Assembly: GCA_002372935.1 (NCBI GenBank)
Contig: DFJF01000005.1
Coordinates: 100,754 to 164,753 of the forward strand
Source: Clostridiales bacterium UBA3678
GTDB taxonomy: Bacteria; Bacillota; Clostridia; TANB77; CAG-508
Length of the DNA stretch: 64,000 nucleotides
Direction: 5' to 3'
Shown here: positions 15,069-33,054 of the stretch, in pieces
Numbering within the stretch: the stretch's first letter is position 1
How the letters are laid out: each line of letters opens with the position of its first letter
Translations under genes and position numbers: made by a program
Notes under the pieces: generated by a model
What the model was told of the DNA's origin: nothing
The model's database searches: none
Seen by the model: only the letters and a program-made list of their open reading frames with translations

Positions 15069-15144
15069 GGGGACGGTTCTTTTTAAAAAAGGGACGGTTC
15101 TTTTTTGAAAGAGAACCGTCCCTTTTTTAAAAAGAACCGTCCCC
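15069..15144. repeat. REP-like array A: 2 forward + 2 reverse GGGGACGGTTC units forming a 76-bp near-perfect palindrome
   Basis: GGGGACGGTTCTTTTTAAAAAAGGGACGGTTC..GAACCGTCCCTTTTTTAAAAAGAACCGTCCCC. The arms are 33 bp and perfect. The array lies between the mscS stop and the polA start. Confidence 0.9.
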
Positions 15145-15148
15145 TTAG

Positions 15149-15946
15149 TTATGAGTTATGGACTGTCACCTGTGGATATGGTATCTCTATATTATTCATA
15201 TCCAATTGTTTTTTCAATATTTGATTAAATTCTATTGTTGCTTTATACCTATTTTCTGGCTTGCAAATAATTTGAAATTTATATTGTATTGCTGAATCTC
15301 CAAATTCACTCAATCCCAAATATTTAGCATTTTTTATTTCTCTAATTTCTTTTAATTGTTCTGCAACTTCACTTAAGATTGTATCTATTTTTCCAGTCTC
15401 ATTATCATAAGATAAACCAATTCCTAAATATAATTCTTCTGACATTTTTTCTACTTTGCTTATATTTCTATTTGCAATTGTATATATATTTCCATTTTTT
15501 ATGCTCTTTATTTTTGTAGATTTCATACCAAGTTGAATGACTTTTCCTTCTATATTATCAATTTTTATTACATCTCCAAGTGCATAATAATCATCTATAA
15601 TAATGTTAGTACCAGAGATGATGTCTTTTAAGGCATCTTGTATAGCAAGTCCAGCAATGACTGAAACTAATCCAAGTCCTGCAACAATTGATGTTACATT
15701 AACACCATAAATTTGCAATATAAGAGCAACTGCAATTATTAAAATTACATATTTTATTATATTTGAAAACAATTTGAAAAGAGTTTTTCCTTTTGCATCT
15801 AACTTCTTGTTTTCTTTGTTTCTCTCCAAAAATTTATTTATTGCCTTTTTTATTATTTTATATAATACCACACTAATTGCTATTATTGCCAATACAATAA
15901 GAATTTTTTGTTCTAAAATAAACTTTAATATATTTTCCCAATTCAT
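15149..15946 (-). CDS. mechanosensitive ion channel (MscS family)
   Basis: Three N-terminal TM helices, then the MscS beta-domain pattern ..LGDVIKIDNIEGKVIQLGMKSTKIKSIKNGNIYTIANRNI. Confidence 0.8.
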   Translation of the reverse strand: MNWENILKFILEQKILIVLAIIAISVVLYKIIKKAINKFLERNKENKKLDAKGKTLFKLFSNIIKYVILIIAVALILQIYGVNVTSIVAGLGLVSVIAGLAIQDALKDIISGTNIIIDDYYALGDVIKIDNIEGKVIQLGMKSTKIKSIKNGNIYTIANRNISKVEKMSEELYLGIGLSYDNETGKIDTILSEVAEQLKEIREIKNAKYLGLSEFGDSAIQYKFQIICKPENRYKATIEFNQILKKQLDMNNIEIPYPQVTVHNS

Positions 15947-16067
15947 ACTATTTCTTTCCTCTCTCTATTTTTTAGATATATTGATTTTATTCATGCTATT
16001 TTTCTTATTTTTATCCAGATTTTCTTCAAATTTTATTGATATTCATCTAATTTTTACCCAAATTCTA

Positions 16068-16631
16068 TCAAGGAATTAATCTCAAACCTTCCAATAAGAT
16101 TTTTAATCCAATTAATATTAAAATAATTCCTCCTGCTAGTTCCGCTTTATTTTGATATTTATCTCCAAATCTATTTCCTATTTCTACCCCTAATATCGAC
16201 ATAATAAATGTAATTATTCCAATAACAGAAACTGCTAAAACAATATTTACTTCAAAAAATGCAAATGTAATTCCAACAGCCAATGCATCAATACTTGTAG
16301 CAATTGCTAAAATAAGCATTGTTTTAAAATCAACATTATCATTACTTTTATTACTTTCATTTTCAAATGACTCTTTTATCATATTCCCGCCAATTATTAA
16401 AAGCAAAATAAATGCCACCCAATGGTCAACTTTTTCTATAAATTCTGCAAATGTTGACCCTAATAAGTACCCTGCAACAGGCATTAATGCTTGAAATATT
16501 CCAAAATACAATCCAATGATAATTGCTTTTTTAAAATCCATTTTTTTCATTGAAAGTCCTTTACATATCGAAACAGCAAAGGCATCCATTGCAAGACTTA
16601 TTCCAATAAAAATGATTTCTGTAATTCCCAT
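16068..16631 (-). CDS. mntP: manganese efflux pump MntP
   Basis: 187 aa, 6 TM segments, with the duplicated DAFAV/DALAV motifs ([11 protein letters not shown] and [10 protein letters not shown]). Confidence 0.8.
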
Positions 16632-16714
16632 CGTAATTCCACCTTTTATATATTCGCAAATTTATCAAACTCTTTTTTCTGATGGATTATTCATAAATTT
16701 CTTAACTACGTTTC

Positions 16715-18121
16715 TTATAAATTATTAACAAATTCTTTAAAACGTTTTCCTCTTTCATCAAAATTTTTAAAAGCATCAAAGCTAGCACTTGCAGGAGATA
16801 GCAAAACTACATCTCCCTCTTTTGCCTTGCTATAAGCAATTTTCACTTCTTCTTCAAGGTTTGGAGCATAATAGATTTCCATATCTTTATTATGTCTTTC
16901 AAGTCCCTTTCTAGTAGCTTCTTCTATTTTTGCTGATGTCGGTCCACATAAAATCAAGGTTCCTACTTTTTCAGCTATAACCTCGCCAATTTCAGTATAA
17001 TCCAAACCTTTTTCTGACCCTCCAGCTAAAAGAATGATATTTTCTTCAAATGCTTTTAACCCTGCAATCGTGCTTGCTGGGCTTGTTCCAATAGAATCAT
17101 TGTACCATTTTACTCCATTCAATTCTCTTACAAACTCTAATCTGTGTTCTACACCTTTGAAACTTCTTATTGCTTCAACTTGAAGCTCTCTTGCAACAAG
17201 AGTGTCTGTCATTGCTAATGCAGCACAAATATTTTCATAATTATGTACTCCTCTAATTTGAATTTCGCTTTTATGCATTATATTTGTTACTTCATTATTT
17301 TGACCTTGTTTAATATATCCATCTGATGTATCATAAAAATACCCATTTTGCAAGATTTGTTTGCTACTGAAAAATTTCACTATATTTTTTGTATAGTTCG
17401 CAAAATCTCTTGTTATTTCATTATCATAATTTAAAACTACAATTCCATTTTCTTTCTGATGTATAAAAATATTCTTTTTTGCATCTTTATATTCATCAAA
17501 AGATCTATGTACATTCAAATGATCTGGAAATACATTTGTTACAAGTGATATGTCTGGACTTACATTCATACCAATTAATTGGAAACTGCTTAGCTCTAAA
17601 ATAACCACATCTTCTGGTGTCATATCTTTTATTTGATTAAAAATTGGATTTCCCATATTTCCACCTAAAAAGCATCTATATCCTGCTTTTTTCATTATTT
17701 CATAAATAATTGTTGTGGTTGTTGTCTTTCCTTCAGTTCCTGTAACTCCAATCACTTTACATGGAGCAAGTTCTATTACAAGTTCTATTTCTGTTGTAAT
17801 AATCGCACCTCTATCAGCTTCTGCTTGTAATTCTTCCCTATATGGCATAATACTTGGTGATCTAAATATTATGTCATATCCTTTTAAATTTTCTAAATTA
17901 TTTTCTCCTCCAAAATATCTTATTTTATATTTATTTATTTTATTTTTTAAATCCTTGCTGAGCTCTTTTTCATCTTTTTTGTCAAATATTGATAGTTCAA
18001 CATTAAATTGATGAAAATAGTCTAACAAAGGAATATTGCTGACACCTATTCCTACTATTGCTATTTTTTTTCCTGATAAATTATTGTTAAAATCTTCTAG
18101 TTTTCTATTTTGAAATTCCAT
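16715..18121 (-). CDS. murD: UDP-N-acetylmuramoyl-L-alanine--D-glutamate ligase
   Basis: Mur ligase P-loop GVTGTEGKTTTT with N-terminal Rossmann IAIVGIGVSN. I prefer the ATG at 18121 (MEFQNRK) over the TTG at 18178 used by the ORF track. Confidence 0.85.
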   Translation of the reverse strand: MEFQNRKLEDFNNNLSGKKIAIVGIGVSNIPLLDYFHQFNVELSIFDKKDEKELSKDLKNKINKYKIRYFGGENNLENLKGYDIIFRSPSIMPYREELQAEADRGAIITTEIELVIELAPCKVIGVTGTEGKTTTTTIIYEIMKKAGYRCFLGGNMGNPIFNQIKDMTPEDVVILELSSFQLIGMNVSPDISLVTNVFPDHLNVHRSFDEYKDAKKNIFIHQKENGIVVLNYDNEITRDFANYTKNIVKFFSSKQILQNGYFYDTSDGYIKQGQNNEVTNIMHKSEIQIRGVHNYENICAALAMTDTLVARELQVEAIRSFKGVEHRLEFVRELNGVKWYNDSIGTSPASTIAGLKAFEENIILLAGGSEKGLDYTEIGEVIAEKVGTLILCGPTSAKIEEATRKGLERHNKDMEIYYAPNLEEEVKIAYSKAKEGDVVLLSPASASFDAFKNFDERGKRFKEFVNNL

Positions 18122-18351
18122 TTTAAAATTAATTCCTTTCTCGTATAATTCTTTCCTTATATAATTATTATCTAACAATCCTTCCTTATAATTTCTTTCT
18201 TAATCTTTTTGCCTTACCAATATAATATCTAATTCTTAAAGCCAGTAGTATTATATCATATTTTATAATTTTATTCTATATTTTTATTTTTATTATATCA
18301 TATCATTATAAATTTACAACCAAAAACAGCATTTTTTTAAATTTATATCTT

Positions 18352-18433
18352 GAAAAAGAAAAATAGCCTAATTTGAAGTGACCCCAAAAAATTGGACATT
18401 TTTTGGGGTCAGTACAATTATAGGCTATTTTTT
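18352..18433 (-). terminator. compound hairpin downstream of sigG (probable terminator)
   Basis: The inner stem GACCCCAAAAAA/TTTTTTGGGGTC is nested in the outer stem AAATAGCCTAAT/ATTATAGGCTATTT, with a U-rich tail on the minus strand. Confidence 0.4.
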
Positions 18434-19328: not shown

Positions 19329-19345
19329 TACTTTCACTTTCAGAA

Positions 19346-19420
19346 GGGGACGGTTCTTTTTAAGAAGGGGACGGTTCTTTTTAAAAAAAGAACCGTCCCC
19401 TTCTTAAAAAGAACCGTCCC
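19346..19420. repeat. REP-like array B: 2 forward + 2 reverse units, 74-bp perfect palindrome
   Basis: 19347-19382 is the exact reverse complement of 19385-19420 (36-bp arms with centre AA). The array lies between the glmS stop and the sigG promoter region. Confidence 0.9.
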
Positions 19421-19429
19421 TATTTGAAA

Positions 19430-21283: not shown

Positions 21284-21372
21284 ATATTTTCCTCCTTATA
21301 TGAAAAGCTTATAAGGTTGATTTTAGAATATTTTCAAGATTGTATTTTTATAAGCTCTATAAATTTATTTCA

Positions 21373-21400
21373 TTATATCAAAATAATTTTTTAAATTCAA
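21373..21400 (-). promoter_or_regulatory. sigma-A type promoter of glmS
   Basis: The minus strand reads TTGAAT, a 17-nt spacer, then TATAAT, about 85 nt upstream of the glmS ATG. Confidence 0.55.
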
Positions 21401-21432
21401 CAAATATTCATCAAAATCTTTTATTTGTAATA

Positions 21433-22767: not shown

Positions 22768-22842
22768 GGGGACGGTTCTTTTTTGAAAGGGGACGGTTCT
22801 TTTTCAAAAGGGGACGGTTCTTTTTCAAAAAAGAACCGTCCC
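22768..22842. repeat. REP-like array C: 3 forward + 1 reverse unit
   Basis: GGGGACGGTTC occurs at 22768, 22789 and 22810 (21-bp phase). GAACCGTCCC occurs at 22833. The array overlaps the last codons of the radical SAM gene. Confidence 0.9.
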
Positions 22843-23793
22843 TGTTTGAAAGTACATTCCCTGTCTCAAATCTTGTTCTTCCATAATTTTATTGAATCTG
22901 TTCATAACAATCTTTTTATGTGCATTCCATTCAGGTGCAATTAAGATATCTTTTGGAGCATCAGCACAAATTCTATGTACAACAATCTGTGGTTTTATAT
23001 GAGTTATAACATAAATTAAATCATCAAGATATTCGTCTAAACTTAAAGGTATATATTGTCCATTCTCATACATTTCACACAACTTAGTATTTTTTACAAC
23101 ATAAGTTGAATGAATTTTGATTCCATCAATATCTAATTTATTTATTAAATTTACTGTATCCTTAATTTGCTCTGGAACACCTTTTTTCCTATCTTCTTCC
23201 GGCAATCCACACATAATATGCACAATAATATCTATATTATATTTATTTAAAATTTCTACAGCTTTTATAAATTCCTCAGTCGAATATCCTCTATTTATAA
23301 TTTTTCCAATTTCATTATCAGAAGTTTGTAATCCAAGCTCAACACACACATAATATTTATTTTTATATGATGAAATAAGGCTTGCAATTTCATCATTTAT
23401 ACAATCAGGTCTTGTAGCTATTGATATTCCAACAATTCTTTCATCTATTAAAGCACTATCATATTTGCTTTTTAAATTCTGAATTGTATCATAAGTATTA
23501 GAAAAATTTTGAAAATATACAATAAATTTATTTGCCCTTTTGGCTCTATATGAAGCAAAATATTCCTTTACTTGATTTTCTATGCCATGTCCAATTAGGT
23601 CTACTGAATCTTTCTCGATTCCATGTCCGATCAATTCTCCAGAACCTTTCTCGCTGCAAAAAATGCAACCTCGATTTCCACATCTTCCATCTCTATTTGG
23701 ACAAGTAAATCCACCATCAATACAGATTTTTAAGGTTCTTTCTCCAAATTTTTTTTTATAATATGTGTTTAAACGATTATATCTTTCTTCCAT
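22825..23793 (-). CDS. TIGR01212-family radical SAM protein
   Basis: DGGFTCPNRDGRCGNRGCIFC cluster followed by the TIGR01212-like body. The C-terminal ..QTGTVLF* is encoded by repeat array C. Confidence 0.8.
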   Translation of the reverse strand: MEERYNRLNTYYKKKFGERTLKICIDGGFTCPNRDGRCGNRGCIFCSEKGSGELIGHGIEKDSVDLIGHGIENQVKEYFASYRAKRANKFIVYFQNFSNTYDTIQNLKSKYDSALIDERIVGISIATRPDCINDEIASLISSYKNKYYVCVELGLQTSDNEIGKIINRGYSTEEFIKAVEILNKYNIDIIVHIMCGLPEEDRKKGVPEQIKDTVNLINKLDIDGIKIHSTYVVKNTKLCEMYENGQYIPLSLDEYLDDLIYVITHIKPQIVVHRICADAPKDILIAPEWNAHKKIVMNRFNKIMEEQDLRQGMYFQTGTVLF

Positions 23794-23801
23794 TTTAGTA
23801 T

Positions 23802-23860
23802 GGCTCCCCTTTCATTTTTCAAAAAAGGGCCATCCCTCTATGAAAGAAGAACCGTCCCTC
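23802..23860. repeat. REP-like array D (one good and two degenerate reverse units)
   Basis: GAACCGTCCCTC occurs at 23849. Degenerate copies are GGGCCATCCCTC at 23827 and GGCTCCCC at 23802, each followed by a TTTCA/TTTGAAAA linker. Confidence 0.6.
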
Positions 23861-23874: not shown

Positions 23875-26457
23875 TTATTCTGTATCTATATTTGTCAAAT
23901 TTTCTGAAGTATTTGTCTTAATACTTGCATTTTCTGAATTTTCATTTGTACCTGTGTTTGTATTTCGAGCATTATTAGTATTATTATTTGTGTTTATATT
24001 CGTATTTGTATTATTTCGAGAATCATTAATACTCGTGTTTGACGAATTTTGCGTATTATTATTTGTATTTGTCGAATTTCGAACATTATTATTTGTTGTA
24101 TTAGTATTGGTTGTATTTTGAGAATTATTTGTATTTGTATTTATATTTGTAGTATTTTGAGAATTATTTGTATATGTATTCGTACTTGTTGAATTTTGCA
24201 AATGATTTTCGCTCCTATTAATATTCGTATTTGTACTTGTAGATTTTTGGGAATTTGAATTTGATGAGCTTCCAAATCCAAATAAATTTTTTATTTTGTC
24301 TATAATTCCCTCATTTGTAGCATCATTTACTTCGCTTCCTGAATGTGTATTACAATAAGCAGGCAATGTTCCTTTTAAATAATACTCTGTATATGTATCT
24401 TTACATCCACTTCTAGCTCTCATTCCACTTTCTTTGCAAACAGTGCATGCAATAACTCCAGATGGAATCTCAAATTTAGAATCATTTTTATTTTTATGAA
24501 TGTCTTTCATGACATTTGCCCAAATATATCCTGCTGGATTTTTTCTATTAAATTCTACTGTTTCATTTTGGTCATATCCAAACCAAGCTACAGCTGTATA
24601 ATAGTTTGTGAATCCACATAGCCATCTATCATAGTTTTCATCAGATGTTCCAGTTTTAGCTGCAACATCTATTCCTGAAATTTTGCAATATGTTGCTGTT
24701 CCATTAACTCCAAGCACTGGTTGCTCTAAAAGGCTTTTTAAAATATATGCAACTTGTTTTGAAACTACTCTTTTCTTCTTTTGAGAGGTTTTCATTAATA
24801 CATTTCCATCTTTTTCTACGATTTTAGTATAAAATGTTGGTTCAATGTATACTCCATCATTTGCCATTGTATTATATGCTCCAGCCATTTCTAATGGACT
24901 AATTCCTTTTTCCAAAGCTCCTAAAGATAGCCCAAGTGATTCATCTCCTTCTGTAAGAGTAGTAATTCCTATACTTTCCAAGAACTTCTTTGATTTTTTA
25001 GGAGTAATCTCTTTTAGCATCCTGACAAATGGAATATTTTGTGATGATTCAACTGCTCTCCTTACTGTGATTTTCCCTAGTTCACTGTCATAATCTGTAG
25101 GTGCAAAACCTGGCTCAAATTCTTCTACAGTATCATCATATATAGTAGAAGCAGTAAAAATCTTATCTGAAATTCCTGGAAGTAACACAGAAAGAGGCTT
25201 TAATGAAGATCCTGTTTGTCTTGTGCTTTGTGTTGCTCTATTTAAAGATCTAGATTCTGTCTTTTCTCCTAATCCTCCAACACATCCCAAAACATATCCT
25301 GTGTTAGGCTCCATTACAACCATCGCAGCCTGAGATGTAGCACCTGCATTTACTTTAGACTCTAATATATATGTTTTTTTCTTACATTCTGTTTCTATAC
25401 TTTCTTGCACATTCAAATCTTCTGTACTGTATATTTTAGATCCAGATAAATATAAAAAATTTGTTGCAAAATCTTCTGAAATATTATATTTATCCTCTAT
25501 GTCTGATAAAACTTCATTTATAACAGCATCTGTATGATATGAATATACTGCATTTCCTGAATCCACATTTCCTTTTTTAAACTTCAGCCCAGCATCTACT
25601 TCTTGTACAGCATCATTATATTTAGTCTCTGAAATATATCCAAGTTCTTTCATTTTTGATAATACAGTTTTTGTTCTATTATTAACCTTTTCTTTGCTTT
25701 CTTCTGTCTCATCAAAAGGCTTATATGAAGCTGGCGAATTGTTTATTCCTGCTAAAAATGCACACTCTGCAATGCTCAAATCCTTAACATCCTTATCAAA
25801 ATAATATTTCGAACCAGCACCAACTCCATAAAGATTTGGTCCAACATAAATTATATTTAAATAATATTCCAAAATATCATCTTTAGACAATGAATTATCT
25901 AATGTAAAAGCTTTATACCATTCTCCTATCTTCCTAGAAATTTTTTTATCAGAATCTCCAGTTATATTTTTTACAAGTTGCTGTGTTATTGTACTTCCAC
26001 CAAAAGATGATTTTCCAAAATGAATAATATAGCTGAAAATTGCACCACCAGTTCTTCTTATATCAACTCCATGATGTTTATAAAACCTTTGATCTTCTAT
26101 AGAAATATATGCATTTTTTAAATATTCTGGCATTTCACTTGAAGATACATAAATTCTTTTTTTCTCTTCTCCTATCTCAGCAATCTGTTTTCCGTCACTA
26201 TTCAATACGACAGAGTCTTGAACATTTTGCATATTCTTAGCTAATTTTAGCCATTTGTTTGTAAAAATAATTAACTCTATAATTAAAAAAGTCACAATCA
26301 TAATAATCATTAATATAGAAATCCTTCTTTTTTTGCTTTTGACTTTTTTATGTTTATCATTTTTTTGAAAGCGTGTCTTTTTAAAGGCTTTTGGTACAAA
26401 TTCATCACTATCATTCAATTCATCATCATTATTTTTTATTTTTTTGCCACTTTTCAT
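23875..26457 (-). CDS. class A penicillin-binding protein (PBP1A-type transglycosylase/transpeptidase) with low-complexity C-terminal tail
   Basis: GT51 motifs EDQRFYKHHGVD and GGSTITQQLVKN, and transpeptidase motifs SSLKP and KTGTS. There is an N-terminal TM anchor. Confidence 0.9.
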   Translation of the reverse strand: MKSGKKIKNNDDELNDSDEFVPKAFKKTRFQKNDKHKKVKSKKRRISILMIIMIVTFLIIELIIFTNKWLKLAKNMQNVQDSVVLNSDGKQIAEIGEEKKRIYVSSSEMPEYLKNAYISIEDQRFYKHHGVDIRRTGGAIFSYIIHFGKSSFGGSTITQQLVKNITGDSDKKISRKIGEWYKAFTLDNSLSKDDILEYYLNIIYVGPNLYGVGAGSKYYFDKDVKDLSIAECAFLAGINNSPASYKPFDETEESKEKVNNRTKTVLSKMKELGYISETKYNDAVQEVDAGLKFKKGNVDSGNAVYSYHTDAVINEVLSDIEDKYNISEDFATNFLYLSGSKIYSTEDLNVQESIETECKKKTYILESKVNAGATSQAAMVVMEPNTGYVLGCVGGLGEKTESRSLNRATQSTRQTGSSLKPLSVLLPGISDKIFTASTIYDDTVEEFEPGFAPTDYDSELGKITVRRAVESSQNIPFVRMLKEITPKKSKKFLESIGITTLTEGDESLGLSLGALEKGISPLEMAGAYNTMANDGVYIEPTFYTKIVEKDGNVLMKTSQKKKRVVSKQVAYILKSLLEQPVLGVNGTATYCKISGIDVAAKTGTSDENYDRWLCGFTNYYTAVAWFGYDQNETVEFNRKNPAGYIWANVMKDIHKNKNDSKFEIPSGVIACTVCKESGMRARSGCKDTYTEYYLKGTLPAYCNTHSGSEVNDATNEGIIDKIKNLFGFGSSSNSNSQKSTSTNTNINRSENHLQNSTSTNTYTNNSQNTTNINTNTNNSQNTTNTNTTNNNVRNSTNTNNNTQNSSNTSINDSRNNTNTNINTNNNTNNARNTNTGTNENSENASIKTNTSENLTNIDTE
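23878..24260. repeat. degenerate short tandem repeats encoding the N/T/S-rich PBP1A tail
   Basis: Reiterated TATT(T/A)GT(A/G)TT-type units translate to NTNTNN(S/T)QN.. over roughly 125 aa. Confidence 0.7.
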
Positions 26458-26487
26458 AATTCATCTCTCTTTCAAATATAAAACACT

Positions 26488-26560
26488 GAGAACCATTAAA
26501 AACAGATCTTTTTTGATACTTTTTTTAATATCTGTCCTATCTTCAAAGAAGAACTGTCCC
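26488..26560. repeat. REP-like array E (degenerate)
   Basis: GAACTGTCCC at 26551 has one mismatch. Also present are ATCTGTCC at 26529, ACAGATC at 26502 (the GGGACAGATC variant also seen at array H) and GAACCAT at 26490. Confidence 0.5.
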
Positions 26561-26573
26561 ATTTTAAATGTAT

Positions 26574-28520
26574 TTATAGTTCGTCCTCTACTATCATTTT
26601 ATCTAAATCTTTAACAAATCCCTTCAATATAACAGTTTTTATAGTTGTATCTTTTCCTTTTAAATAGTCTGAAATCATACGCTTTAAAGAACTCATATTT
26701 TTTTGCTCTTCTTTTACAACTTCTGGATGTAACTTTGCTCTTTTTAGCATTCTTTCTCTAATAATTACTATATCTTCATTTGTAGCACAAGTAAGTCTCT
26801 GTAACATTTGATATGGATCAAAATATTTGAATATTGGAATATCCATGCATTCCTTATCAAATCTTTCATAGAATTGTTCCATTTTCATTGGAATATTTTT
26901 AAATACCTCTTCTGCTTTTATTTCATATTCTTTTTCTAATAATTCATCATTTAAATCATTAAAACTACTGATTACTTCATTTATATCATCAGATGAATTA
27001 TAAATTGAAATTTTTTCTAGCTCTTCGCGAACATTTGGAAAATATCTTGAATGACTCGCAGCTATATTCATTCCAGTAATAAAGTCTTCTTTTAAATCTT
27101 TTAGGTCATAACTAATTAAATAATTATTGTAAAAATAGATATAATATACAAACAATTTTGCAATATCTATAAGCTCTAACTTGCCTTTTTTGACATCATC
27201 AAGAGCCTCATATACTGTGTCAAAAAACTTATCATCTGGAATTTTCCAATATTCTTCAACTAAAATTCTCTTATATGCAGGAATATTTCTTTCTCCACTT
27301 GATGTCATTTCTGCATCTTCCATATCACGCTTGAAAATTTTCATATCGAAAATTCTAGTTCTAATATAAAATTCTATGAATTTAAAAAATCTATATTCTG
27401 TTTTAAAATTATAATAATAATTTCCATCAAATTCTTTTATATAAAATTGTCTATTATCACTTAAAACCCTTGAAGAAACTAAGATTGATTTATATTCTTC
27501 ATTATCTTCTATATTTTTGAATTTTTCCTTAGTAATTTTTCCAGCTTTTATCTCAAATGATGCAGCTATAGTAAAAATAAGCATTGTTTGCATAACAATT
27601 TTATTAGTATTTGGATAAAATTTATCTGTCATTTCATAAATCTTTTTAAAATCATTTAAAGATTGTTTTAAAATACGCAAGTTCCTTGTTCCGCTTCTCT
27701 TAAATGTTGACATAATCAAATTAGAATTTTCTCTTAAAAATTTGACTAATCCTGGATTTGACTCATATCTCATTAGAATTCCATTTATAATATAGTCAAA
27801 TTTAGGTGCATATTCAAAAGTCTCTCCTATTAATTTTTCCTTAATTCTCTCATAATCATTTGTTCTTTCAAAAACAGTTTCTATTCTATCTTTAATTTTT
27901 TCAATCATAGGTAAATCATTATTATTAAGTTCACCTTGCTTGTCCAAAAGATAAGTTGCTATAAAAGTCTTCATTTCAAGATTTTCACTCTTCATCTTTG
28001 TAGCTAATTCTTTTTCATTACAGATGATGATTGTCTTCATGTGATCATGTTCAACGAAATTGTTGATATAGCCCAAAATGTCTATAACATCAACATTTGC
28101 TCTTTCTAAATCATCAAAACATAAAACCTTGTCATTAATAGCAAAAAACTCATCATAATCAATCTTCTCCCCATTTTGTGCCACACCGAAAAAATTCGCC
28201 ATATCAAGGCTAGTTTTAGCATATTCTGGAATTGCTGTTTGTTTATGTGTTGACATATATCTTCTCAAACTTTTATCCATTAGTTGGGTAGTCTCAATAA
28301 ATATTTTCTTACTAATTTCTTCCAAATTTGAAATACCATATAGAGACATATAAATAGTCTTATATTTTCTTCCATTTAGTGTAAGTGATTCGATTTTTGT
28401 TTTAATTTGATTATTCCAGAAATATGTTTTTCCTGCACCCCATTCACCATTAATCATAATAGCATAATCTGTATAATCTGATCTTACATAATCTAAAACA
28501 CTTTCTAATAAATCATCCAT
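26574..28520 (-). CDS. KAP-family P-loop NTPase
   Basis: Walker A INGEWGAGKTYFW and Walker B-like VLCFDDLERA, followed by a long alpha-helical C-terminal region. I prefer the ATG at 28520 (RBS GAGGAATATT) over the GTG at 28532. Confidence 0.75.
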   Translation of the reverse strand: MDDLLESVLDYVRSDYTDYAIMINGEWGAGKTYFWNNQIKTKIESLTLNGRKYKTIYMSLYGISNLEEISKKIFIETTQLMDKSLRRYMSTHKQTAIPEYAKTSLDMANFFGVAQNGEKIDYDEFFAINDKVLCFDDLERANVDVIDILGYINNFVEHDHMKTIIICNEKELATKMKSENLEMKTFIATYLLDKQGELNNNDLPMIEKIKDRIETVFERTNDYERIKEKLIGETFEYAPKFDYIINGILMRYESNPGLVKFLRENSNLIMSTFKRSGTRNLRILKQSLNDFKKIYEMTDKFYPNTNKIVMQTMLIFTIAASFEIKAGKITKEKFKNIEDNEEYKSILVSSRVLSDNRQFYIKEFDGNYYYNFKTEYRFFKFIEFYIRTRIFDMKIFKRDMEDAEMTSSGERNIPAYKRILVEEYWKIPDDKFFDTVYEALDDVKKGKLELIDIAKLFVYYIYFYNNYLISYDLKDLKEDFITGMNIAASHSRYFPNVREELEKISIYNSSDDINEVISSFNDLNDELLEKEYEIKAEEVFKNIPMKMEQFYERFDKECMDIPIFKYFDPYQMLQRLTCATNEDIVIIRERMLKRAKLHPEVVKEEQKNMSSLKRMISDYLKGKDTTIKTVILKGFVKDLDKMIVEDEL

Positions 28521-28547
28521 AATATTCCTCACTTTCTTCTTTCAAAA

Positions 28548-28643
28548 GGGGACGGTTCTTTTTTGAAAGAGAACCGTCCCCTTTCAAAAAAGAACCGTCC
28601 CCTTCTGAAAGAGAACCGTCCCCTTTTGAAAAAGAACCGTCCC
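28548..28643. repeat. REP-like array F: 1 forward + 4 reverse units
   Basis: GGGGACGGTTC occurs at 28548. GAACCGTCCC(C) occurs at 28571, 28592, 28613 and 28634 (21-bp phase). Confidence 0.9.
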
Positions 28644-28652
28644 TTTCTGAAA

Positions 28653-29312
28653 TTAATCTTTTGCAATTGTAAATATTCCAATCGATTTTACCCCAATATT
28701 TTTTAGTATTCTGCTACATTCATTCACTGTATTTCCTGTTGTAAAAATATCATCTACAAGCAAAACTTTTTTTCCCGTAAAATTTTCTTTTGTTTTTGCT
28801 TCGTAAACTCCTATCACATTCTTTACCCTTTCTTCTTGGCTTAATGTACTTTGAGGCTGATTGTCTTTTATCTTTACCAAAGTCTTTTTATATGAAATTG
28901 CTTTATTTAAATCTTTTTTATTTATTGATTTTGCAATGTTAATTGCCAATAAATCACTTTGATTGTATCCTCTTTCTTTATATCTTTTTTGACTTATTGG
29001 AACTGGAGTTATTATATCATACTTTACAATTTGATTACAAATTTTTTCATTATTTTCTATAAATTTTACAAAACTTTCATAAATATATGGTTTATCTTCA
29101 AATTTATATTTTATTATTATATCTCGGATCTCTCCATCATATTGAAATAAATAGATGTGTTCGTCAAAATAACTAGATGTGTCTTTATAACTTTCAATTT
29201 TGCAAGCAGATTGATTTTTTAATCTAATTTTGCACTTTTTACATAATCTATTTTTATCTAATTTTCCACAAAAACCGCACACTGGTGGATATAAAATGTC
29301 TATAAAGTTCAA
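28653..29312 (-). CDS. comFC: ComF family protein (ComFC-type phosphoribosyltransferase-fold competence protein)
   Basis: N-terminal 4-Cys zinc finger (PPVCGFCG...CKKC) and the PRTase motif KKVLLVDDIFTTGNT. The start is placed at the TTG at 29312, after GAGGTGAAATT. Confidence 0.8.
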   Translation of the reverse strand: MNFIDILYPPVCGFCGKLDKNRLCKKCKIRLKNQSACKIESYKDTSSYFDEHIYLFQYDGEIRDIIIKYKFEDKPYIYESFVKFIENNEKICNQIVKYDIITPVPISQKRYKERGYNQSDLLAINIAKSINKKDLNKAISYKKTLVKIKDNQPQSTLSQEERVKNVIGVYEAKTKENFTGKKVLLVDDIFTTGNTVNECSRILKNIGVKSIGIFTIAKD

Positions 29313-29414
29313 AATTTCACCTCGGTATAATTTAATAATTATTGTAATTCTCAAATTTGAAATTTATGAAGTCCTGAAACAGAGATTTTAAACAATAAAA
29401 TCTCTGAATTACAA

Positions 29415-31676
29415 TCAATTATTTTCACTATATAAAATTAATTTGTATTTTAGCCCCGTATTTCTTTTTTTACTGTCAACATTATTTATCATAAATTCAA
29501 TTGTGTTTTTTTCTCCAATTATAATCAAAAGCTGCTTGGCTCTAGTAATTCCTGTATATAGTAAATTTCTAGTTAGAAGAATTGGTGCTGTTCTAGGTAT
29601 GCACATAATAACAACATCATATTCACTACCTTGTGCTTTATGGATCGTAACTGCATAACTATGTTCAATTTGCTCCAAGTTTGTGTATTCATATACTGCA
29701 ACTTTGCCATCATCAAATTTTATTGTAACACTTTTTTCTCTTTCGCTAATACTCAAAATAGTGCCTATTTCTCCATTAAACACTCCTGTACCATATTCCA
29801 CTTTCTCCTCTTTCTTAAGATTTTCCTTCTCCCAAGTAATATCATAATTATTCTTTACTTGCATTATTCTATCTCCAACTCTGAAAATTACACCATTTGC
29901 CTTTTTCTCATCTCTTAATTTATCTTCTGGATTTAATGCATTTTGCAAATATTTATTTAGTTCTTTTGTCCCAAGCATTCCTTTTTTTGTTGGAGTCAAA
30001 ATTTGAATATTCTTAAAAAAATCATAATTACCATAATTTTGAAGTCTTCCTGTGCATAATGAAATAATTTGATATAATATTTTTTCCTGATTTCTCTCAT
30101 CTATGACAAAAAAATCTTTTTTAGAATCATCTGATAGCTCATTTTTTGGCAAAAAATATTTTCCATCATTTACTCTATGTGCGTTCACAACGATTTGGCT
30201 CTTGGCAGCTTGTCTAAATACTTTGTCTAAATGAATAGTTGTGACTGTCTCTGATTCGATTAAATCTTTTAGAACAATTCCAGGTCCTACAGATGGCAAT
30301 TGATCACTATCTCCAACTAAAATCAATTTTGTCCCTTTATATATTGAACATAATAAATAATTCATCAAAAACATGTCAACCATTGACATTTCATCAACAA
30401 TTATTAAATCCGCATCAATCGGAGTTCCCTGGTATTCTTGCTGTTTATTTAACAAAATATCATCATCAAACTTTCCGATTTCTAAAAGTCTATGCAGAGT
30501 GCTTGCTTCTTCTCCTGTGGTCTCTGTAATTCTTTTTGCTGCTCTACCAGTTGGTGCACATAATACGACCTTGTTTCCCTGCTTTTCATAAATCTGTATT
30601 ATAGACTTGATTATTGTAGTTTTTCCAGTACCAGGTCCTCCTGTTATAATTGTAACATTATGATCATTAACGGCTTCTATCGCTTCTTTTTGCTTATCTG
30701 ACAAATTTATATCATCAATTATTTCAATTTTGCCTAATTCTTTATTTATATTTTTTATAAATTTAAAATTCTTTGCATTATCCAGAGATAAAATTTTTTT
30801 TGCAATACTTTCTTCTGTTTTATAAAAAATTGCCAAATATACCCATATATCTCCATTTTCTCTTGTTTCTTCATATATCTCACCTGAAGCCTTTAGATTA
30901 ATATAACTATCTTCTATAAAATCTCCGGAAACTCCTATAAGAGTTCTTACAAACTCTATTAAATTTTCTTTAAGTGTGCAACAATGCCCATTATATGTAA
31001 TTCTTATTAATGAATATTTAATTGCACTTCTCACTCTTTTATCATTATTTTCTTCCATGCCCAAATCCATAGCCATTTTATCTATCTGTTTAAAATCAAC
31101 GCCTCTTGCAATATCTATTAAAATATATGGATTCGCTTCAATTTGCTCAATCGCATTAATCCCAAGCTCATCATAAACTTTTTTAGAATTCTCTGCACCT
31201 ATTCCAAACTTTTCTAAAAATCCCACAATCTGCCATACTTCCCAGTGCTCAACAAAACTTGCTGAAATCTCTAAAGCCTTTTCTTTTGTAATGCCTCTTA
31301 TCTGAGACAACTTCAAAGGCTGAAATTTAATAACACTTATCGTATCTTCTCCAAAAGTTCCAACAATTTTATGTGCAGTTGCTGGTCCAACTCCTTTAAT
31401 CATACCATTTCCAATATATCCTTCTAAAGCATCTAAAGTCTGTGGCATGAGCTTTTCAAAAGTATCAACCTTAAATTGCTTACCATACTCTCTATGTTTC
31501 ACAAATCTTCCAATAACTTTAAGCTCATCCCCCTCTACAACAAAAGGCAAATACCCAACTATAGTTATTAAATTATCTTCTTTTCCATCAATTTTATCAA
31601 CATACATTTCAGCTATTGTATAACTATTTACATCATTTTGATAAATTATTGCAGTAATTTCTCCTGTAAGTTTCAA
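29415..31676 (-). CDS. recD2: ATP-dependent RecD-like DNA helicase (RecD2, SF1B)
   Basis: 753 aa with an N-terminal OB/HhH region, Walker A ITGGPGTGKTT, DEMSMVD, and the C-terminal AVTIHKAQGSE. Confidence 0.9.
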   Translation of the reverse strand: MKLTGEITAIIYQNDVNSYTIAEMYVDKIDGKEDNLITIVGYLPFVVEGDELKVIGRFVKHREYGKQFKVDTFEKLMPQTLDALEGYIGNGMIKGVGPATAHKIVGTFGEDTISVIKFQPLKLSQIRGITKEKALEISASFVEHWEVWQIVGFLEKFGIGAENSKKVYDELGINAIEQIEANPYILIDIARGVDFKQIDKMAMDLGMEENNDKRVRSAIKYSLIRITYNGHCCTLKENLIEFVRTLIGVSGDFIEDSYINLKASGEIYEETRENGDIWVYLAIFYKTEESIAKKILSLDNAKNFKFIKNINKELGKIEIIDDINLSDKQKEAIEAVNDHNVTIITGGPGTGKTTIIKSIIQIYEKQGNKVVLCAPTGRAAKRITETTGEEASTLHRLLEIGKFDDDILLNKQQEYQGTPIDADLIIVDEMSMVDMFLMNYLLCSIYKGTKLILVGDSDQLPSVGPGIVLKDLIESETVTTIHLDKVFRQAAKSQIVVNAHRVNDGKYFLPKNELSDDSKKDFFVIDERNQEKILYQIISLCTGRLQNYGNYDFFKNIQILTPTKKGMLGTKELNKYLQNALNPEDKLRDEKKANGVIFRVGDRIMQVKNNYDITWEKENLKKEEKVEYGTGVFNGEIGTILSISEREKSVTIKFDDGKVAVYEYTNLEQIEHSYAVTIHKAQGSEYDVVIMCIPRTAPILLTRNLLYTGITRAKQLLIIIGEKNTIEFMINNVDSKKRNTGLKYKLILYSENN

Positions 31677-31695
31677 TTTTTGCTCCTTTCAAAGA

Positions 31696-31810
31696 GGGAC
31701 GGTTCTCTTTCAAAAAGGGACGGTTCTTTTTTGAAAGGGGACGGTTCTTTTTTGAAGGGGGACGGTTCTCTTTCAAAAGGGGACGGTTCTTTTTTGAAGG
31801 GGGACGGTTC
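31696..31810. repeat. REP-like array G: six head-to-tail forward units at exact 21-bp spacing
   Basis: The A of GACGGTTC falls at 31699, 31720, 31741, 31762, 31783 and 31804. The linkers are either TCTTTCAAAA or TTTTTTGAA(A). Confidence 0.95.
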
Positions 31811-31922
31811 TTTAAATAAAAATTGAAACTAATACACCAATTTTAAAGTAATATTAATTTTTCATTTTTATAAAAGATTAAATCCCCTCTATCTCAAAGA
31901 ATGTATCTCTCTTTTTATTAAA

Positions 31923-32699
31923 TTATATTTCATCAATTTTTTCTTTTATCATTTTCAAATTCCATCTGCTAATTCTTGTAACTCTTGCAATCTGACTTAA
32001 ACTAGTATATTGCATATTTTTAAAAATTTCAACTACTTTTTCTAATTCTTCATCATTAAATTTTGAGATTTCATTAATATTATTAATCTTAAATTTTTTT
32101 ACAATAAAATCTTTTAACCCTTCATCTGTAAAGTTTGTTTCCAATTCAAATTCAAGAAAATCAAATTGATTATCACTATTCTCTAGCAATGTAAATTTTT
32201 TTAAATCATCTATATTTTCATTGAAATAATGCAACAAGATATGCTTGTCAACAATTTTTTCTTTTCCTATATATTCATGATAACTGCTCCAATGGTAATC
32301 TTTGGTTTGACAAATTCCAGCTTTTTCGGGATTTTGATGTACATATCTACAGACATCTAAAAAATATTTTTGATTTTCAACACACTTACTTTTAAATCTA
32401 TCTTGAAAAAAATGACCTGAACGATTATATTTTTTGTTAAAATATGAGGTATACCTAATATTTAAGCTCTGCATAAATCTTGATAAATCTGTATCTTCTA
32501 TTTGCATCACCAAATGTACATGATTGCTCATCAAACAATATGCAAATATCTTACAAGAAAATAAATCTTTCAAATTTTCAATTTTTTTTAAATAATTTGA
32601 TTTGTCTTGGCTATCGTAAAAAATATCTTGTCCATCAATTCCTTTACACATTATATGATATATCTTACTTAAACTTAGTTTTCTAGCACTTCTTGGCAA
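31923..32699 (-). CDS. IS200-like Y1 (HUH) transposase homolog of the REP-associated (RAYT) type, with a C-terminal HTH-like extension
   Basis: HUH motif in CLMSNHVHLVMQ, GHFFQDRFKS, and the Tyr motif CRYVHQNPEKAGI. The C-terminal segment YTSLSQIARVTRISRWNLKMI looks like an HTH. Both flanks are repeat arrays. Confidence 0.75.
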   Translation of the reverse strand: MPRSARKLSLSKIYHIMCKGIDGQDIFYDSQDKSNYLKKIENLKDLFSCKIFAYCLMSNHVHLVMQIEDTDLSRFMQSLNIRYTSYFNKKYNRSGHFFQDRFKSKCVENQKYFLDVCRYVHQNPEKAGICQTKDYHWSSYHEYIGKEKIVDKHILLHYFNENIDDLKKFTLLENSDNQFDFLEFELETNFTDEGLKDFIVKKFKINNINEISKFNDEELEKVVEIFKNMQYTSLSQIARVTRISRWNLKMIKEKIDEI

Positions 32700-32933
32700 A
32701 TAATCACATCCTTTATAAAAGAAATTTTATTCTAATTTTTTGAAATTAAAATTATTTGATTTAAATAATAATTCAGACAAAAACATTGAATAATCAAATT
32801 AAAAAACAATTTTAAATAACAATTTTAATAATTGATTCAAATAATTAAATTTATGTTAATAATTCTAGCACATTAATTTTAATTTGTCTATACTTTTTCC
32901 AAAAAATGGTATTATTTCTCTGCCTATTCTTTT

Positions 32934-33054
32934 AAAGATCTGTCCCTCTTTCAAAAAGAACCGTCCCCTTTCAAAAAAGAACCGTCCCCTTTCAAAAAAG
33001 AACCGTCCCCTTTCAAAAAAGAACCGTCCCCCTTTGAAAGAGGGACAGATCTTT
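32934..33054. repeat. REP-like array H: four reverse units at 21-bp spacing enclosed by a perfect 22-bp inverted repeat
   Basis: GAACCGTCCCC occurs at 32958, 32979, 33000 and 33021. The terminal AAAGATCTGTCCCTCTTTCAAA (32934-32955) is the exact reverse complement of TTTGAAAGAGGGACAGATCTTT (33033-33054). The right end touches the ftsZ stop codon. Confidence 0.95.

Follow-up and report, generated by a model that had tools for sequence, protein, structure and literature searches.

Inverted tandem hairpin units around a Y1 transposase gene: a probable TIRtron-type system in Clostridia

Analyzing 64 kb of the genome of Clostridiales bacterium UBA3678 (the whole stretch, hereafter the window), we found that arrays of an 11-nt core, GGGGACGGTTC, are arranged around a gene for a Y1 (HUH) transposase. 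The arrays and the gene probably constitute a TIRtron/REPtron-type system, in which one gene of the TIRYT or TnpA_REP subclass 2.1 kind is accompanied by its own inverted units. The blocks FFFFFF and RRRR (F, GGGGACGGTTC; R, its reverse complement) are both ends of one gene-bearing element, and the six other arrays are gene-less miniatures of it, 75-100-bp palindromes in neighbouring gaps. The TIRYT kind is already known but barely studied, and the tandem-unit, hairpin-loop variant is new.

Scanning the window for GGGGACGGTTC with at most one mismatch gave 28 matches (20 exact and 8 with one mismatch) spanning 15069-33031, in line with the ~29 clear copies plus degenerate ones that a sequence-only reading of this DNA had counted; dinucleotide shuffles average 0.02 matches and never exceed 1. 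Allowing two or three mismatches adds, as related copies, only the decayed unit at 26551 and two GGGACAGATC variants at 32937 and 33042. Arrays occupy 8 of the 13 gaps inside this interval, the same number as first counted, and 0 of ~30 outside it in the window (Fisher p = 9e-6; gaps counted by hand from the ORF list). Neighbouring units of the window arrays are spaced without exception by 21 bp in the same orientation and by 23 bp from F to R, so that the phase first described as mostly 21 bp is exact for same-orientation units. Linkers are more varied than the two types then named, with TTTTTAAAAA, TTTTTAAGAA, TTTTTCAAAA and TTTTTTGAAG also occurring. That such arrays arose by chance or misassembly, or are of a CRISPR-like or other kind, is scarcely credible: their regular spacing lends this a superficial appeal and nothing else does, whereas the copy number far exceeds the shuffled expectation and the arrays recur in independent assemblies from at least six samples in three repositories. 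A CRISPR array was rejected because the 10-nt spacers are repeated, not unique, and the neighbouring genes have no cas-related domains.

Table 1. Repeat arrays, transposase gene and promoter candidate in the window
Feature	Position	Strand	Remarks
FFRR gene-less element	15069..15144	.	mscS / polA gap; near-perfect palindrome of ~76 bp
FFRR gene-less element	19346..19421	.	sigG / glmS gap
FFFR gene-less element	22768..22843	.	murA / radical-SAM gap
Degenerate R block	23800..23859	.	radical-SAM / PBP gap; good unit 23849-23859, degenerate GGGCCATCCC 23827-23836
Decayed element	26485..26561	.	PBP / KAP-NTPase gap; holds GAGAACCATT, ACAGATC, ATCTGTCC, GAACTGTCCCA
FRRRR gene-less element	28548..28644	.	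KAP-NTPase / comF-like gap
3'-side block of transposase gene, F x6	31695..31810	.	21-bp period; R on gene strand
Y1/HUH tyrosine transposase gene, RAYT/TIRYT type	31923..32699	-	258 aa, TTG start
Sigma-70-like promoter candidate	32862..32890	-	TAGACA-17-TAGAAT with upstream TG; consensus match alone
5'-side block of transposase gene	32934..33051	.	R x4 at 32958-33031; F on gene strand

The orientation patterns obey one rule: F units come first and R units second, and the G-rich ends face outward. Every element in the window and the rumen metagenomes is either (F)n(R)m or a block of a single orientation, and R followed by F was never seen among them; at 110 other loci, F-to-R order occurs 66 times and R-to-F order 3 times. 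The strings FFRR, FFRR, FFFR, FRRRR, FFFFFF and RRRR reported earlier stand, except that the supposed RRR at 23.80 kb has one good R unit beside degenerate ones. The array at 26.49 kb, described as mixed and degenerate, is indeed degenerate and is better called a decayed relic, identical in length across six strain contigs. Unit counts along the window (4, 4, 4, ~2, relic, 5, 6 and 4(+2)) leave only a weak trace of the density rise toward the gene that had been noted.

On the gene strand, the gene-bearing element runs from four copies of GGGGACGGTTC through the promoter candidate and the transposase gene to six copies of GAACCGTCCCC. The six-F block stops 19 nt before the recD2 start codon, with the recD2 ribosome-binding site after its last unit, and the 5'-side block abuts the ftsZ stop codon. 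The four R units of the latter are bracketed by an inverted variant pair, GATCTGTCCC (32937-32946) and GGGACAGATC (33042-33051), predicted to form a 23-bp stem (-22.9 / -28.7 kcal/mol). The gene-less elements of the window consist of both end blocks with 12 nt between them. By folding, the first FFRR element reaches -41 kcal/mol on both strands (z = -12) and FRRRR -33 to -36 kcal/mol, and the F strand of the six-F block reaches -22.4 kcal/mol (z = -4.6) but its complement only -12.0 (z = -1.2), an asymmetry due to G.T pairs.

Each unit of ~21 nt comprises an 8-nt arm (TTTGAAAG) and the 11-nt core, and the arm pairs with CTTTCAAA beyond the core; the unit is thus a hairpin with the conserved core as loop and a changeable stem (for example, TTTGAAAGGGGACGGTTCTCTTTCAAA). 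The two "linkers" named earlier are stem arms. A tandem block follows the formula (left arm + core)n + right arm, with a complete stem only at the last unit. When 7 nt on each side of the core were compared in isolated units from elsewhere (69 units in 37 loci), 46% had at least 6 of 7 Watson-Crick pairs versus 4.8% in controls, and their stem arms are lineage-specific and co-varying. Among block-terminal units of other lineages, only 8% have a perfect stem of at least 5 bp.

The transposase belongs to the Y1 HUH superfamily (IS200/IS605-RAYT), and the RAYT-like gene suspected from the sequence is real, with a Pfam Y1_Tnp match of 60.3 bits (cutoff 23; E = 2.5e-16). It has an HUH motif (H60-V-H62), a catalytic Tyr119 within YVHQNPEKAG, and a C-terminal extension of ~110 aa with a probable helix-turn-helix (HTH) at its end, where AlphaFold confidently models three helices (residues 216-257; pLDDT 89 for the whole model). 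In the PDB, the model is closest to the RAYT-REP complex of E. coli, 4ER8 (E = 4e-9, TM 0.75), and the top 30 Foldseek matches are all RAYT, IS608, ISDra2 or IS200 transposases. Across 37 homologs, H60, H62, Y119, N123 and P124 never vary. In the assembly collection, 108 blocks index the exact 258-aa protein, and 23 of the contigs that carry it were read. A RAYT in the strict sense was rejected: the NCBIfam REP_Tyr_transpos score (NF047646) of 69.8 bits lies under the cutoff of 80, identity to E. coli RayT is 23%, and there are no GTAG-tagged REP palindromes. Identity to the published TIRYT pca3049 (sequence taken from the alignment in PMC3733652) is 34% over 204 aa (E = 2e-34), with the common signatures AYCLMxNHVHL, GxxWQxRF, Y...NP..AG and WSS. 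The promoter candidate, found by consensus scan, occupies part of the space that separates the gene from its 5' repeat block, and similar TAGACA/TTGACA-17-TAnAAT strings were seen by eye at the same place in the loci L117, L118, L157 and L158.

The core is not restricted to this lineage: arrays of it occur in genomes of six phyla (Bacillota, Actinomycetota, Bacteroidota, Cyanobacteriota, Patescibacteria and Planctomycetota); in Bacillota and Bacteroidota it adjoins full-length transposase homologs. Inverted flanking of the gene is seen in at least 10 homolog loci, with the 5'-F...gene...R-3' layout, in gene orientation, at L026, L038, L042, L073, L081, L084, L085, L117, L158 and L163; the first seven, from Peptococcaceae, Syntrophomonas, Clostridia and Bacteroidales, encode homologs of 33-43% identity (26% for L084). 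Seven of 110 array loci of 8 kb contain the transposase gene, compared to ~0.3 expected if it is single-copy. The core changes together with the enzyme, through GGGGACGGTTC, GGGACAGTCCC, GGGACCGGTTC and GGGGACGTTTC. In L118 (gene 52% identical), GGGAC[A/T]GTCCC stands at both gene flanks and in one dispersed copy; in L119 (gene also 52% identical), blocks of GGGACCGGTTC/GACTGGTTC flank the gene and 8 more such composite blocks lie nearby. The dispersed copies thus carry the variant of their own gene's flanks, rather than a motif that is alike in relatives whatever the gene. Many homolog contigs are barely gene-length.

Local clustering, which the sequence-only reading had taken for local spread, is seen again outside the window. 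L119, over a stretch of 20 kb, has arrays in 10 of its 17 gaps, and in the complete 2.63-Mb replicon of Acetoanaerobium noterae, which has one transposase gene copy, 10 of 13 BLAST places fall within 90.5 kb (3.4%); together with the gap occupancy in the window, this is far from an even spread irrespective of the gene, and 13 places in 2.63 Mb argue for a low copy number in A. noterae. Copies accumulate 3' of the gene in the window and 5' of it in A. noterae, so that no simple replication- or transcription-directed rule accounts for clustering. The confinement to 18 kb claimed earlier is true within the window and not beyond it: L147, a 41.7-kb metagenome contig that matches the window at 99.2-99.7% identity along three stretches, carries FFFFF-plsC-RRR ~24-25 kb further along than the polA array, which places this pair outside the window and, if the two are colinear, at a distance of ~40 kb from the gene. 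This pair counts against the TIRtron explanation, and so do about 18 more AT-rich loci that bear these units in rumen metagenomes. The cmk-plsC-uvrA block has moved, and both plsC-flanking gaps hold arrays.

Between strains of 99.4-99.8% identity, three arrays vary by whole units (+21, -42, +21 and other), and there is almost no other difference in length. The murA / radical-SAM array is FFFFR (+21 bp) in L002 and L006, the KAP-NTPase / comF-like array is FRR in L006 (shorter by 42 bp), and the 5'-side block has 4 units in the window and 5 in L001-L006, with block lengths of 180-212 bp. Such changes could be plain replication slippage, for which perfect 21-bp tandems are classic substrates. 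The repeats might even be passive now, having been seeded once by the transposase and changed since by slippage or recombination between 21-bp units, with the gene left as a relic that is inactive or re-purposed. All six strains have their arrays at the same positions and differ in unit number alone, and two decayed relic arrays are conserved across strains; the synteny of gene and recD2 is kept in four species, with recD2 downstream despite proteins that are 52-65% identical. However, we regard passivity as unlikely. The protein is clearly constrained, given its invariant catalytic residues and the many blocks with its exact sequence, the dispersed copies in L118 and L119 follow the core variant of their gene, which requires continued co-evolution, and array sites differ between related species: a related contig, OCTW013370341, has its arrays elsewhere, and L117 lacks the sigG/glmS and murA arrays.

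A different role is suggested by the position of the elements, which occupy whole gaps between co-directional genes and leave only a few nt ahead of the ribosome-binding site that follows. The (F)n(R)m elements are predicted to form very stable hairpins with T-runs, and a terminator scan gave 17 sites versus 4.3 expected, most of them inside arrays. The arrays might then be mainly host cis-elements kept by selection, such as terminators or attenuators, mRNA-stabilising hairpins, or phased protein sites, the 21-bp period equalling two helical turns; a candidate for the binding protein is the Y1 protein itself, which could regulate through its HTH tail on double-stranded DNA, and HTH-like tails have been reported for subclass 2.1 (PMC6006769). 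The period is not fixed, however (20 in L117, 23/23/32 in L119 and 13-25 elsewhere), and the HTH assignment is weak, all Pfam and PDB matches being below threshold (HTH_7, 0.0017; HTH_28, 0.023; HTH_23, 0.15; PezA HTH region, 0.027). Moreover, the close relative L117 (transposase 62% identical) has no arrays in corresponding gaps, as at sigG/glmS, two of the window arrays are in decay, strains vary freely in unit number, and no Rfam family matches the arrays. At the KAP-NTPase / comF-like gap, L117 retains a relic unit and L118 has a copy with the variant core. Thus, a primary role as cis-elements seems improbable, and it is just as improbable that selection, not transposition, holds the arrays within this cluster of cell-wall, division and replication genes.

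Among known systems, the arrays fit the TIRYT/TIRtron class of Di Nocera et al. (2013, PMC3733652). The corresponding TnpA_REP branch, subclass 2.1 of Quentin et al. (2018, PMC6006769), is found in ~15% of strains, Clostridia included. Besides the sequence likeness to pca3049, the resemblance lies in a Y1/HUH gene longer than a RAYT gene, with a C-terminal extension, and in terminal inverted repeats that open with a G-run and stand in place of REPs (F x6 and R x4 here). The published TIR motif is GGGGWSAS, with extra copies sometimes in "dimers or clusters" (PMC3733652), and no REP-like sequences were reported near subclass 2.1 genes (PMC6006769). The core, as GGGGACGG, fits this motif at 7 of 8 positions (G for A at position 7) and its conserved stretch is longer, at 11 nt; W-S-A-S is matched by the variant units GGGACAGA and by GGGACAGT of L118, which have three G only, and a Sporomusa homolog has a perfect match, GGGGTCAG. 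The window system departs from published TIRYTs in several ways: tandem units, repeated every 21 nt, flank the gene at either end, the unit is a hairpin with its conserved part in the loop, copies cluster beside the gene, and the short tail is probably of the HTH type, whereas most published TIRYTs carry a GRPxG...KRGRP tail.

REPtrons of Enterobacteria and Pseudomonas (PMC2817692, PMC3479197, PMC8266576) likewise have an HUH Y1 enzyme, single-copy there and probably here, flanked by inverted hairpin repeats, dispersed non-autonomous copies and repeat-enzyme co-evolution, and 4ER8 is the best structural match. In contrast to the tagged, conserved GC-rich stems of REPs, the stems here carry neither GTAG nor CGTC at their foot, GTAG being absent from the units that flank the gene, and it is the loop that is conserved and the stem that varies. 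The blocks are direct tandems, unlike the alternating repeats with BIME linkers of REPtrons, copy number is apparently low, distribution is local, and identity to E. coli RayT is low. Classical REPs number more than 100 per genome and are 20-40-bp imperfect palindromes, intergenic and dispersed. The REP/BIME-style family first proposed is therefore right insofar as REP-like non-coding repeats are tied to a Y1 gene and wrong as to a classical REP/BIME, which was rejected for want of a GTAG-tagged conserved stem and of alternating orientation. A BIME is also rejected by units that are direct within each block and by a single orientation switch per element, F then R.

REPINs (Bertels & Rainey 2011, PMC3116915) resemble the gene-less elements in joining inverted halves in one long hairpin, as in FFRR, and the gene of REPIN / Group 1 RAYT systems is single-copy and largely vertically inherited. 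The kept recD2 neighbour and the one gene copy in the A. noterae replicon would suit a gene of that kind, while the upstream neighbour differs in L157, L117/L118/L158 and L119. Group 1 RAYTs have been reported from Clostridia, and flanking 16-mers occur only ~12 times (PMC5581495). Here, however, the halves are tandem multimers and the elements are near the gene, not genome-wide. A likeness to MITEs is seen in A. noterae, where dispersed elements of ~110 bp consist of both end units enclosing a 3'-terminal stretch of ~70 bp from the transposase gene region, but the enzyme here is HUH, not DDE, and no target-site duplication was identified for the elements.

In a TIRtron/REPtron-type system, the enzyme would recognise the folded unit in single-stranded DNA, for example at a replication fork, and Tyr119 would nick and rejoin DNA, as E. 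coli TnpA_REP does in vitro (PMC8266576). Nicking and rejoining may make new copies and alter unit number. The enzyme may prefer DNA near its own gene and so act in cis, which would explain why copies pile up in adjoining gaps. The kept recD2 neighbour and the identical array positions in six strains suggest that transposition is rare or may have stopped. The host may benefit through termination or mRNA stabilisation. We further raise, tentatively, the possibility that the arrays are the long-missing DNA substrates of subclass 2.1 (TIRYT), the second-largest TnpA_REP subclass, recognised through an 11-nt hairpin loop, conserved across phyla, tandem and spread in cis. Recognition could then conceivably differ in logic from that of REP/RAYT, with a stem free to vary, by analogy with rolling-circle Rep nick sites. 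The latter, in CRESS-DNA viruses and pT181-type plasmids, combine an HUH enzyme with a conserved-loop hairpin, a co-varying stem and short direct repeats alongside; the likeness is in working principle only, and there is no replicon here.

REP/RAYT is the textbook case of a domesticated transposase that upholds a population of short repeats. To our knowledge, nearly all that is understood of it comes from Proteobacteria and from conserved-stem hairpins, and we know of no defined substrate or biochemistry for the TIRYT / subclass-2.1 branch. This locus and its relatives offer a concrete candidate substrate, a 27-nt hairpin with a conserved 11-nt loop, together with a clear polarity rule and natural enzyme-core variants. 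Cis-limited spread is indicated in the window, in the 20-kb stretch of L119 and in one complete genome with genome-wide counts. If the arrays are indeed the substrates of subclass 2.1, the system would be a tractable model of a domesticated HUH enzyme that seeds and reshapes local intergenic DNA, and it could drive rearrangements (compare the cmk-plsC-uvrA block). In practical terms, the elements break metagenome assemblies, differ in length among strains, and lie directly upstream of the ribosome-binding sites of the core genes polA, glmS, murA and recD2.

We searched the window for the core, GGGGACGGTTC, and found 28 copies at ≤1 mismatch, 20 of them exact, all within a single interval (table), against 0.02 expected from shuffles. 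All same-orientation neighbours are spaced 21 bp apart and all forward-to-reverse (F-to-R) neighbours 23 bp, and the orientation strings of the sequence-only reading (FFRR, FFRR, FFFR, FRRRR, FFFFFF, and RRRR) were reproduced by this search; two further arrays are decayed. With intergenic gaps counted from the ORF list of the window, 8 of the 13 gaps inside the interval are occupied versus 0 of ~30 elsewhere in the window (Fisher p = 9e-6). No units occur in the 3.4 kb of sequence added to the left of the window by extension through edge genes, which gained nothing on the right side, and no Rfam family matched the entire 64-kb window at gathering thresholds. A CRISPR or other array type was ruled out, as the linkers recur and cas genes are lacking. 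The arrays are a genuine finding.

The gene flanked by the last two arrays encodes a Y1/HUH transposase. Its protein scores 69.8 with the NCBIfam RAYT model, under the cutoff of 80. It has an HUH motif, HVH, and the tyrosine of YxxxNP, neither of which varies across 37 homologs of 47-64% identity. AlphaFold predicts the fold with confidence (pLDDT 89), and the top PDB match of the model is 4ER8, the Escherichia coli RAYT with a REP hairpin (E = 4e-9, TM 0.75), followed by the IS608, ISDra2, and IS200 transposases. In sequence, the protein is 34% identical to the TIRYT pca3049 (E = 2e-34), whose sequence comes from the alignment in the supplement to Di Nocera et al. 2013, versus 23% to E. coli RayT. 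In the predicted model, the C-terminal 40 residues fold into a bundle of three helices, for which helix-turn-helix (HTH) matches in Pfam and PDB sequence searches were all sub-threshold. An index of the assembly collection lists the identical protein in 108 blocks, and the species of the window occurs in sheep-rumen datasets (SRR873601, AUXO01). The repeats in the leader of the gene may be regulatory.

Features of the window and of the loci compared with it (identity, transposase protein versus that of the window)
Feature or locus	Positions	Strand	Identity	Description
Core copies	15069-33031			only span of the window with copies
Decayed arrays	23.80 kb and 26.49 kb
Transposase ORF	31923-32699	minus		258 aa; Pfam Y1_Tnp, E = 2.5e-16
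Transposase-gene leader	32700-32860			160 nt, AT-rich; short inverted and direct repeats of AATTATT / TTGAATCAATTATT type
KAP-family P-loop NTPase, ComF-like phosphoribosyltransferase, RecD2 helicase	26574-31676			3' of transposase gene
Palindrome, murD-like/sigG gap	18352-18432			~75 bp, AAATAGCCTAATTTGAAGTGACCCCAAAAAATTGGACATTTTTTGGGGTCAGTACAATTATAGGCTATTT
Leader of glmS	21284-21432			149 nt
Class A PBP gene	23875-26457
Tandem repeats, 3' end of PBP gene	23973-24209			inside coding sequence; periods 39 and 78 nt, ~76% matches
Sole long plus-strand gene stretch	58315-61644	plus
Junction in L157 (ERZ913599 scaffold_14336)	4040-4463			AT-rich transposase-gene sequence turns abruptly into GC-rich unrelated sequence
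L117			62%	recD2-comF-KAP neighbourhood as in window; FF + RRR at gene
L158			65%	cmk-plsC-uvrA upstream, recD2 downstream; FFFF-gene-RRR
L118			52%	neighbourhood as in window and L117; palindromic GGGAC[A/T]GTCCC instead of core, both gene flanks
L119			52%	different neighbourhood; gene flanked by composite GGGACCGGTTC/GACTGGTTC blocks
L160, viral-collection contig			34%	GGGGACGTTTC within ATGACA/TGTCAT arms
L166, Sporomusa plasmid pSPTER			33%	GGGGTCAGGCC, perfect match to published GGGGWSAS

Read on the gene strand, the 5' side consists of an R'-variant unit, four F units, an F'-variant unit, and a promoter-like TAGACA-17-TAGAAT, followed by the long AT-rich leader, the gene, and six R units, with the recD2 ribosome-binding site directly after. 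Since the layout is F units, gene, R units, FFFFFF and RRRR are the two inverted ends of a single gene-bearing element. Variant units, GGGACAGATC on one side and its complement on the other, bracket the RRRR block. All remaining intact arrays run from an F block into an R block and equal the gene-bearing element minus its interior, so the orientation patterns that had been read as varied all obey one F-then-R rule. The same polarity holds at loci among the listed matches of a GTDB scan, where adjacent cores stand in F-to-R order 66 times versus 3 times in R-to-F order. The gene-less F/R elements are near-perfect palindromes (FFRR hairpin, -41 kcal/mol, z = -12, on either strand). No target-site duplication is identifiable at the element ends, which merge into TTTCA/TGAAA arm sequence.

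The unit itself, TTTGAAAGGGGACGGTTCTCTTTCAAA on the F strand, shows the base pairing of a hairpin when it stands alone. Comparing the 7 nt on each side of GGGACGGTTC in isolated single units (n = 69 in 37 loci), we found at least 6 of 7 Watson-Crick pairs between flanks in 46% of units versus 4.8% with flanks swapped between loci. These arms are lineage specific, including AAGACAG/CTTGTCTT, GGCCACC/GGTGGCC, TGTAACAG/CTGTTACA, CAATCAG/CTGATTG, and, in Acetoanaerobium, AATCA/TGATT. In the window they are TTTGAAAG and CTTTCAAA, the sequences previously taken for two linker types, which are indeed present and are reinterpreted here as hairpin arms. Tandem blocks follow the formula (left arm + core)n + right arm, and pure F blocks fold on the F strand via G.T pairs (-22.4 versus -12.0 kcal/mol on the complement). 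In block-terminal units, 8% pass a perfect-stem test versus 1.7% in controls. The hairpin-with-loop signal is strong only in isolated units, and the model is not established for every unit. In contrast to classical REPs, in which the stem is conserved, the window-type unit has a conserved loop and a variable stem.

The sequence-only reading had the arrays confined to 18 kb, which is true of the window and not of the genome, because arrays flank plsC further along contig OCTW013385330.1. Three stretches of this contig align with the window at 99.2-99.7% identity, and ~24-25 kb beyond the polA array it carries cmk-FFFFF-plsC-RRR-uvrA, at locus L147 (positions 30614-41685). Scanning metagenomes for the AT-rich unit pattern gave 33 stretches, of which 5 are the window's own arrays and the others represent ~18 distinct AT-rich loci; one contig, OCTW013370341.1, comes from a relative, its ftsZ matching with 68% DNA identity, and has its arrays at different sites. 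The gene order cmk-plsC-uvrA-transposase-recD2 is found in three related species (L117, L118, and L158), and in the window species ftsZ precedes the transposase gene and the cmk-plsC-uvrA block lies ~40 kb off on the same contig, with one F block and one R block in the gaps either side of plsC. The arrays may have brought this rearrangement about; alternatively, F block-plsC-R block may form an element carrying a passenger gene.

Genome-wide counts come from a cultured isolate, Acetoanaerobium noterae DSL2. Its 2.63-Mb replicon is labelled a plasmid (NZ_CP154629.1, "plasmid pTPELB2"), has only 4 annotated features in PLSDB, and seems to be a replicon of chromosome size entered as a plasmid. 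It encodes one transposase homolog (35% identity) with the same core at its flanks. The dispersed elements, ~110 bp long, are by their sequence internal-deletion derivatives, since they retain ~70 bp from the 3' end of the gene region. BLAST placed such sequences at 13 positions in the entire replicon, 10 of them within 90.5 kb around the gene and all 5' of it; the binomial probability of 9 or more out of 12 falling in 3.4% of the replicon is 1e-11. Local accumulation is thus demonstrated for the window and for A. noterae, in the latter on genome-wide counts. L119 shows equally high gap occupancy near its gene, with eight further copies of the 3'-side block and 10 of 17 gaps filled in the 20 kb covered. 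A replication- or transcription-direction rule for copy location was rejected, because copies lie 3' of the gene in the window and 5' in A. noterae, with the gene on the leading strand in both.

The core is not specific to one lineage. Scanning GTDB, one genome per species, for two cores 21 bp apart gave more than 110 stretches, a cross-phylum list that is a lower bound and carries no frequencies. The listed matches include Lachnospiraceae, Oscillospiraceae, further Clostridia, Peptococcaceae, and Syntrophomonas on the Bacillota side; Micropruina, Propionicimonas, Streptomyces, and others in Actinomycetota; and Bacteroidales, Prevotellaceae, a cyanobacterium, a Gottesmanbacteria MAG, and a Sedimentisphaerales MAG. 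Across these listed matches, with G+C of 30-77%, the core is constant and the inter-core sequence is lineage specific. A full-length homolog of the window's transposase (33-43% identical; 26% in one piece, L084) is present in 7 of the 110 8-kb pieces around the listed matches, one of the seven from Bacteroidales, and all seven have F units 5' of the gene and R units 3'.

Comparison of individual loci shows that the repeat and the transposase gene change together (table). L117 has a single relic in its comF/KAP gap and an empty sigG/glmS gap, and the same gap between comF and KAP in L118 holds the variant block found at its gene. The KAP, ComF, and RecD2 genes stay grouped 3' of the transposase gene in L117 and L118, whose transposases are only 52-62% identical to that of the window; in L158, the next gene 3' aligns with the L117 recD2 start and the contig stops before further genes. 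L157 has a Big_2 protein gene upstream of the transposase gene instead of ftsZ and is probably a chimeric assembly, which accounts for the P0002 match of "96% identity over 72%". Homologs are found in 29 of 72,556 plasmid records and on 3 viral contigs. Among the three plasmid-collection loci inspected, only A. noterae has the exact core at the gene flanks, and the three viral contigs showed no more than the related variant of L160. A plasmid or phage vehicle therefore finds no support, since homologs are few there and, in the loci inspected, the sole exact-core case is the chromosome-sized A. noterae replicon.

In six metagenome contigs from the window's species, which share 99.4-99.8% identity over 20 kb, the arrays of 22.8-33.0 kb occupy identical positions, and three of these arrays differ by whole units: FFFR versus FFFFR, FRRRR versus FRR, and RRRR versus RRRRR, the last with block lengths of 180-212 bp across contigs. 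Many homolog contigs hardly exceed the gene in length, from which we infer that the flanking repeats break metagenome assemblies. In vitro, E. coli TnpA_REP cuts folded REPs in single-stranded DNA and joins them again (PMC8266576, PMC3479197). If this family chemistry applies, the window enzyme would recognise the folded unit in single-stranded DNA, nick and rejoin it through Tyr119, and act mainly close to its own gene, which would yield new [F]n[R]m elements as well as the changes in unit number. For the latter, slippage is a sufficient alternative. Judged from sequence, the hairpins with their T-runs could also terminate or stabilise transcripts.

The idea of a REP/BIME-style family holds at its core, and the class is a different and already known one, TIRYT/TIRtron. 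In TIRtrons a RAYT-like gene lies between inverted repeats, an anatomy that the window system matches; the published repeats share GGGGWSAS, and extra copies sometimes occur as dimers or clusters (Di Nocera et al. 2013, PMC3733652). The window system also appears to match TnpA_REP subclass 2.1, for which the authors note HTH-type C-terminal tails and report finding no REP-like sequences near the genes (Quentin et al. 2018, PMC6006769). Group 1 RAYTs with low-abundance flanking 16-mers have been described in Clostridia (Bertels et al. 2017, PMC5581495). Unlike classical REP/BIME, the window system is without a GTAG tag, conserves the loop, and has units in direct tandem. The exact core string is absent from the searchable literature, where a search gave only unrelated primers, and the core is not described in later RAYT/REPIN/TnpA_REP papers. 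What appears to be new is the extended 11-nt core with its recurrence across phyla, the unit with conserved loop and variable stem, the tandem multimerisation of element ends, and the clustering beside the gene, seen repeatedly.

The window has a G+C content of 22-31% and a Clostridia-type gene set for cell wall, division, and sporulation (polA, murD-like, sigG, glmS, murA, class A PBP, recD2, ftsZ, ftsA, DUF881), nearly all on the minus strand, which GC skew marks as leading. No glmS ribozyme was found by Rfam in the leader of glmS, despite its length and the Firmicute-type genome. A separate palindrome lies between the murD-like gene and sigG, its two halves in R-to-F order and its inner arms holding GGGGTCAG / (G)TGACCCC; GGGGTCAG fits the published TIRYT motif GGGGWSAS at every position, and the Sporomusa homolog (L166) carries it as its end motif too. 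The palindrome may represent a terminator or what is left of a second TIR family. The tandem repeats in the PBP gene probably encode a repetitive low-complexity C-terminal tail. The plus-strand stretch coincides with positive GC skew at 58-62 kb: gene orientation and skew are both inverted locally there, in a window that otherwise keeps uniformly to the minus strand.
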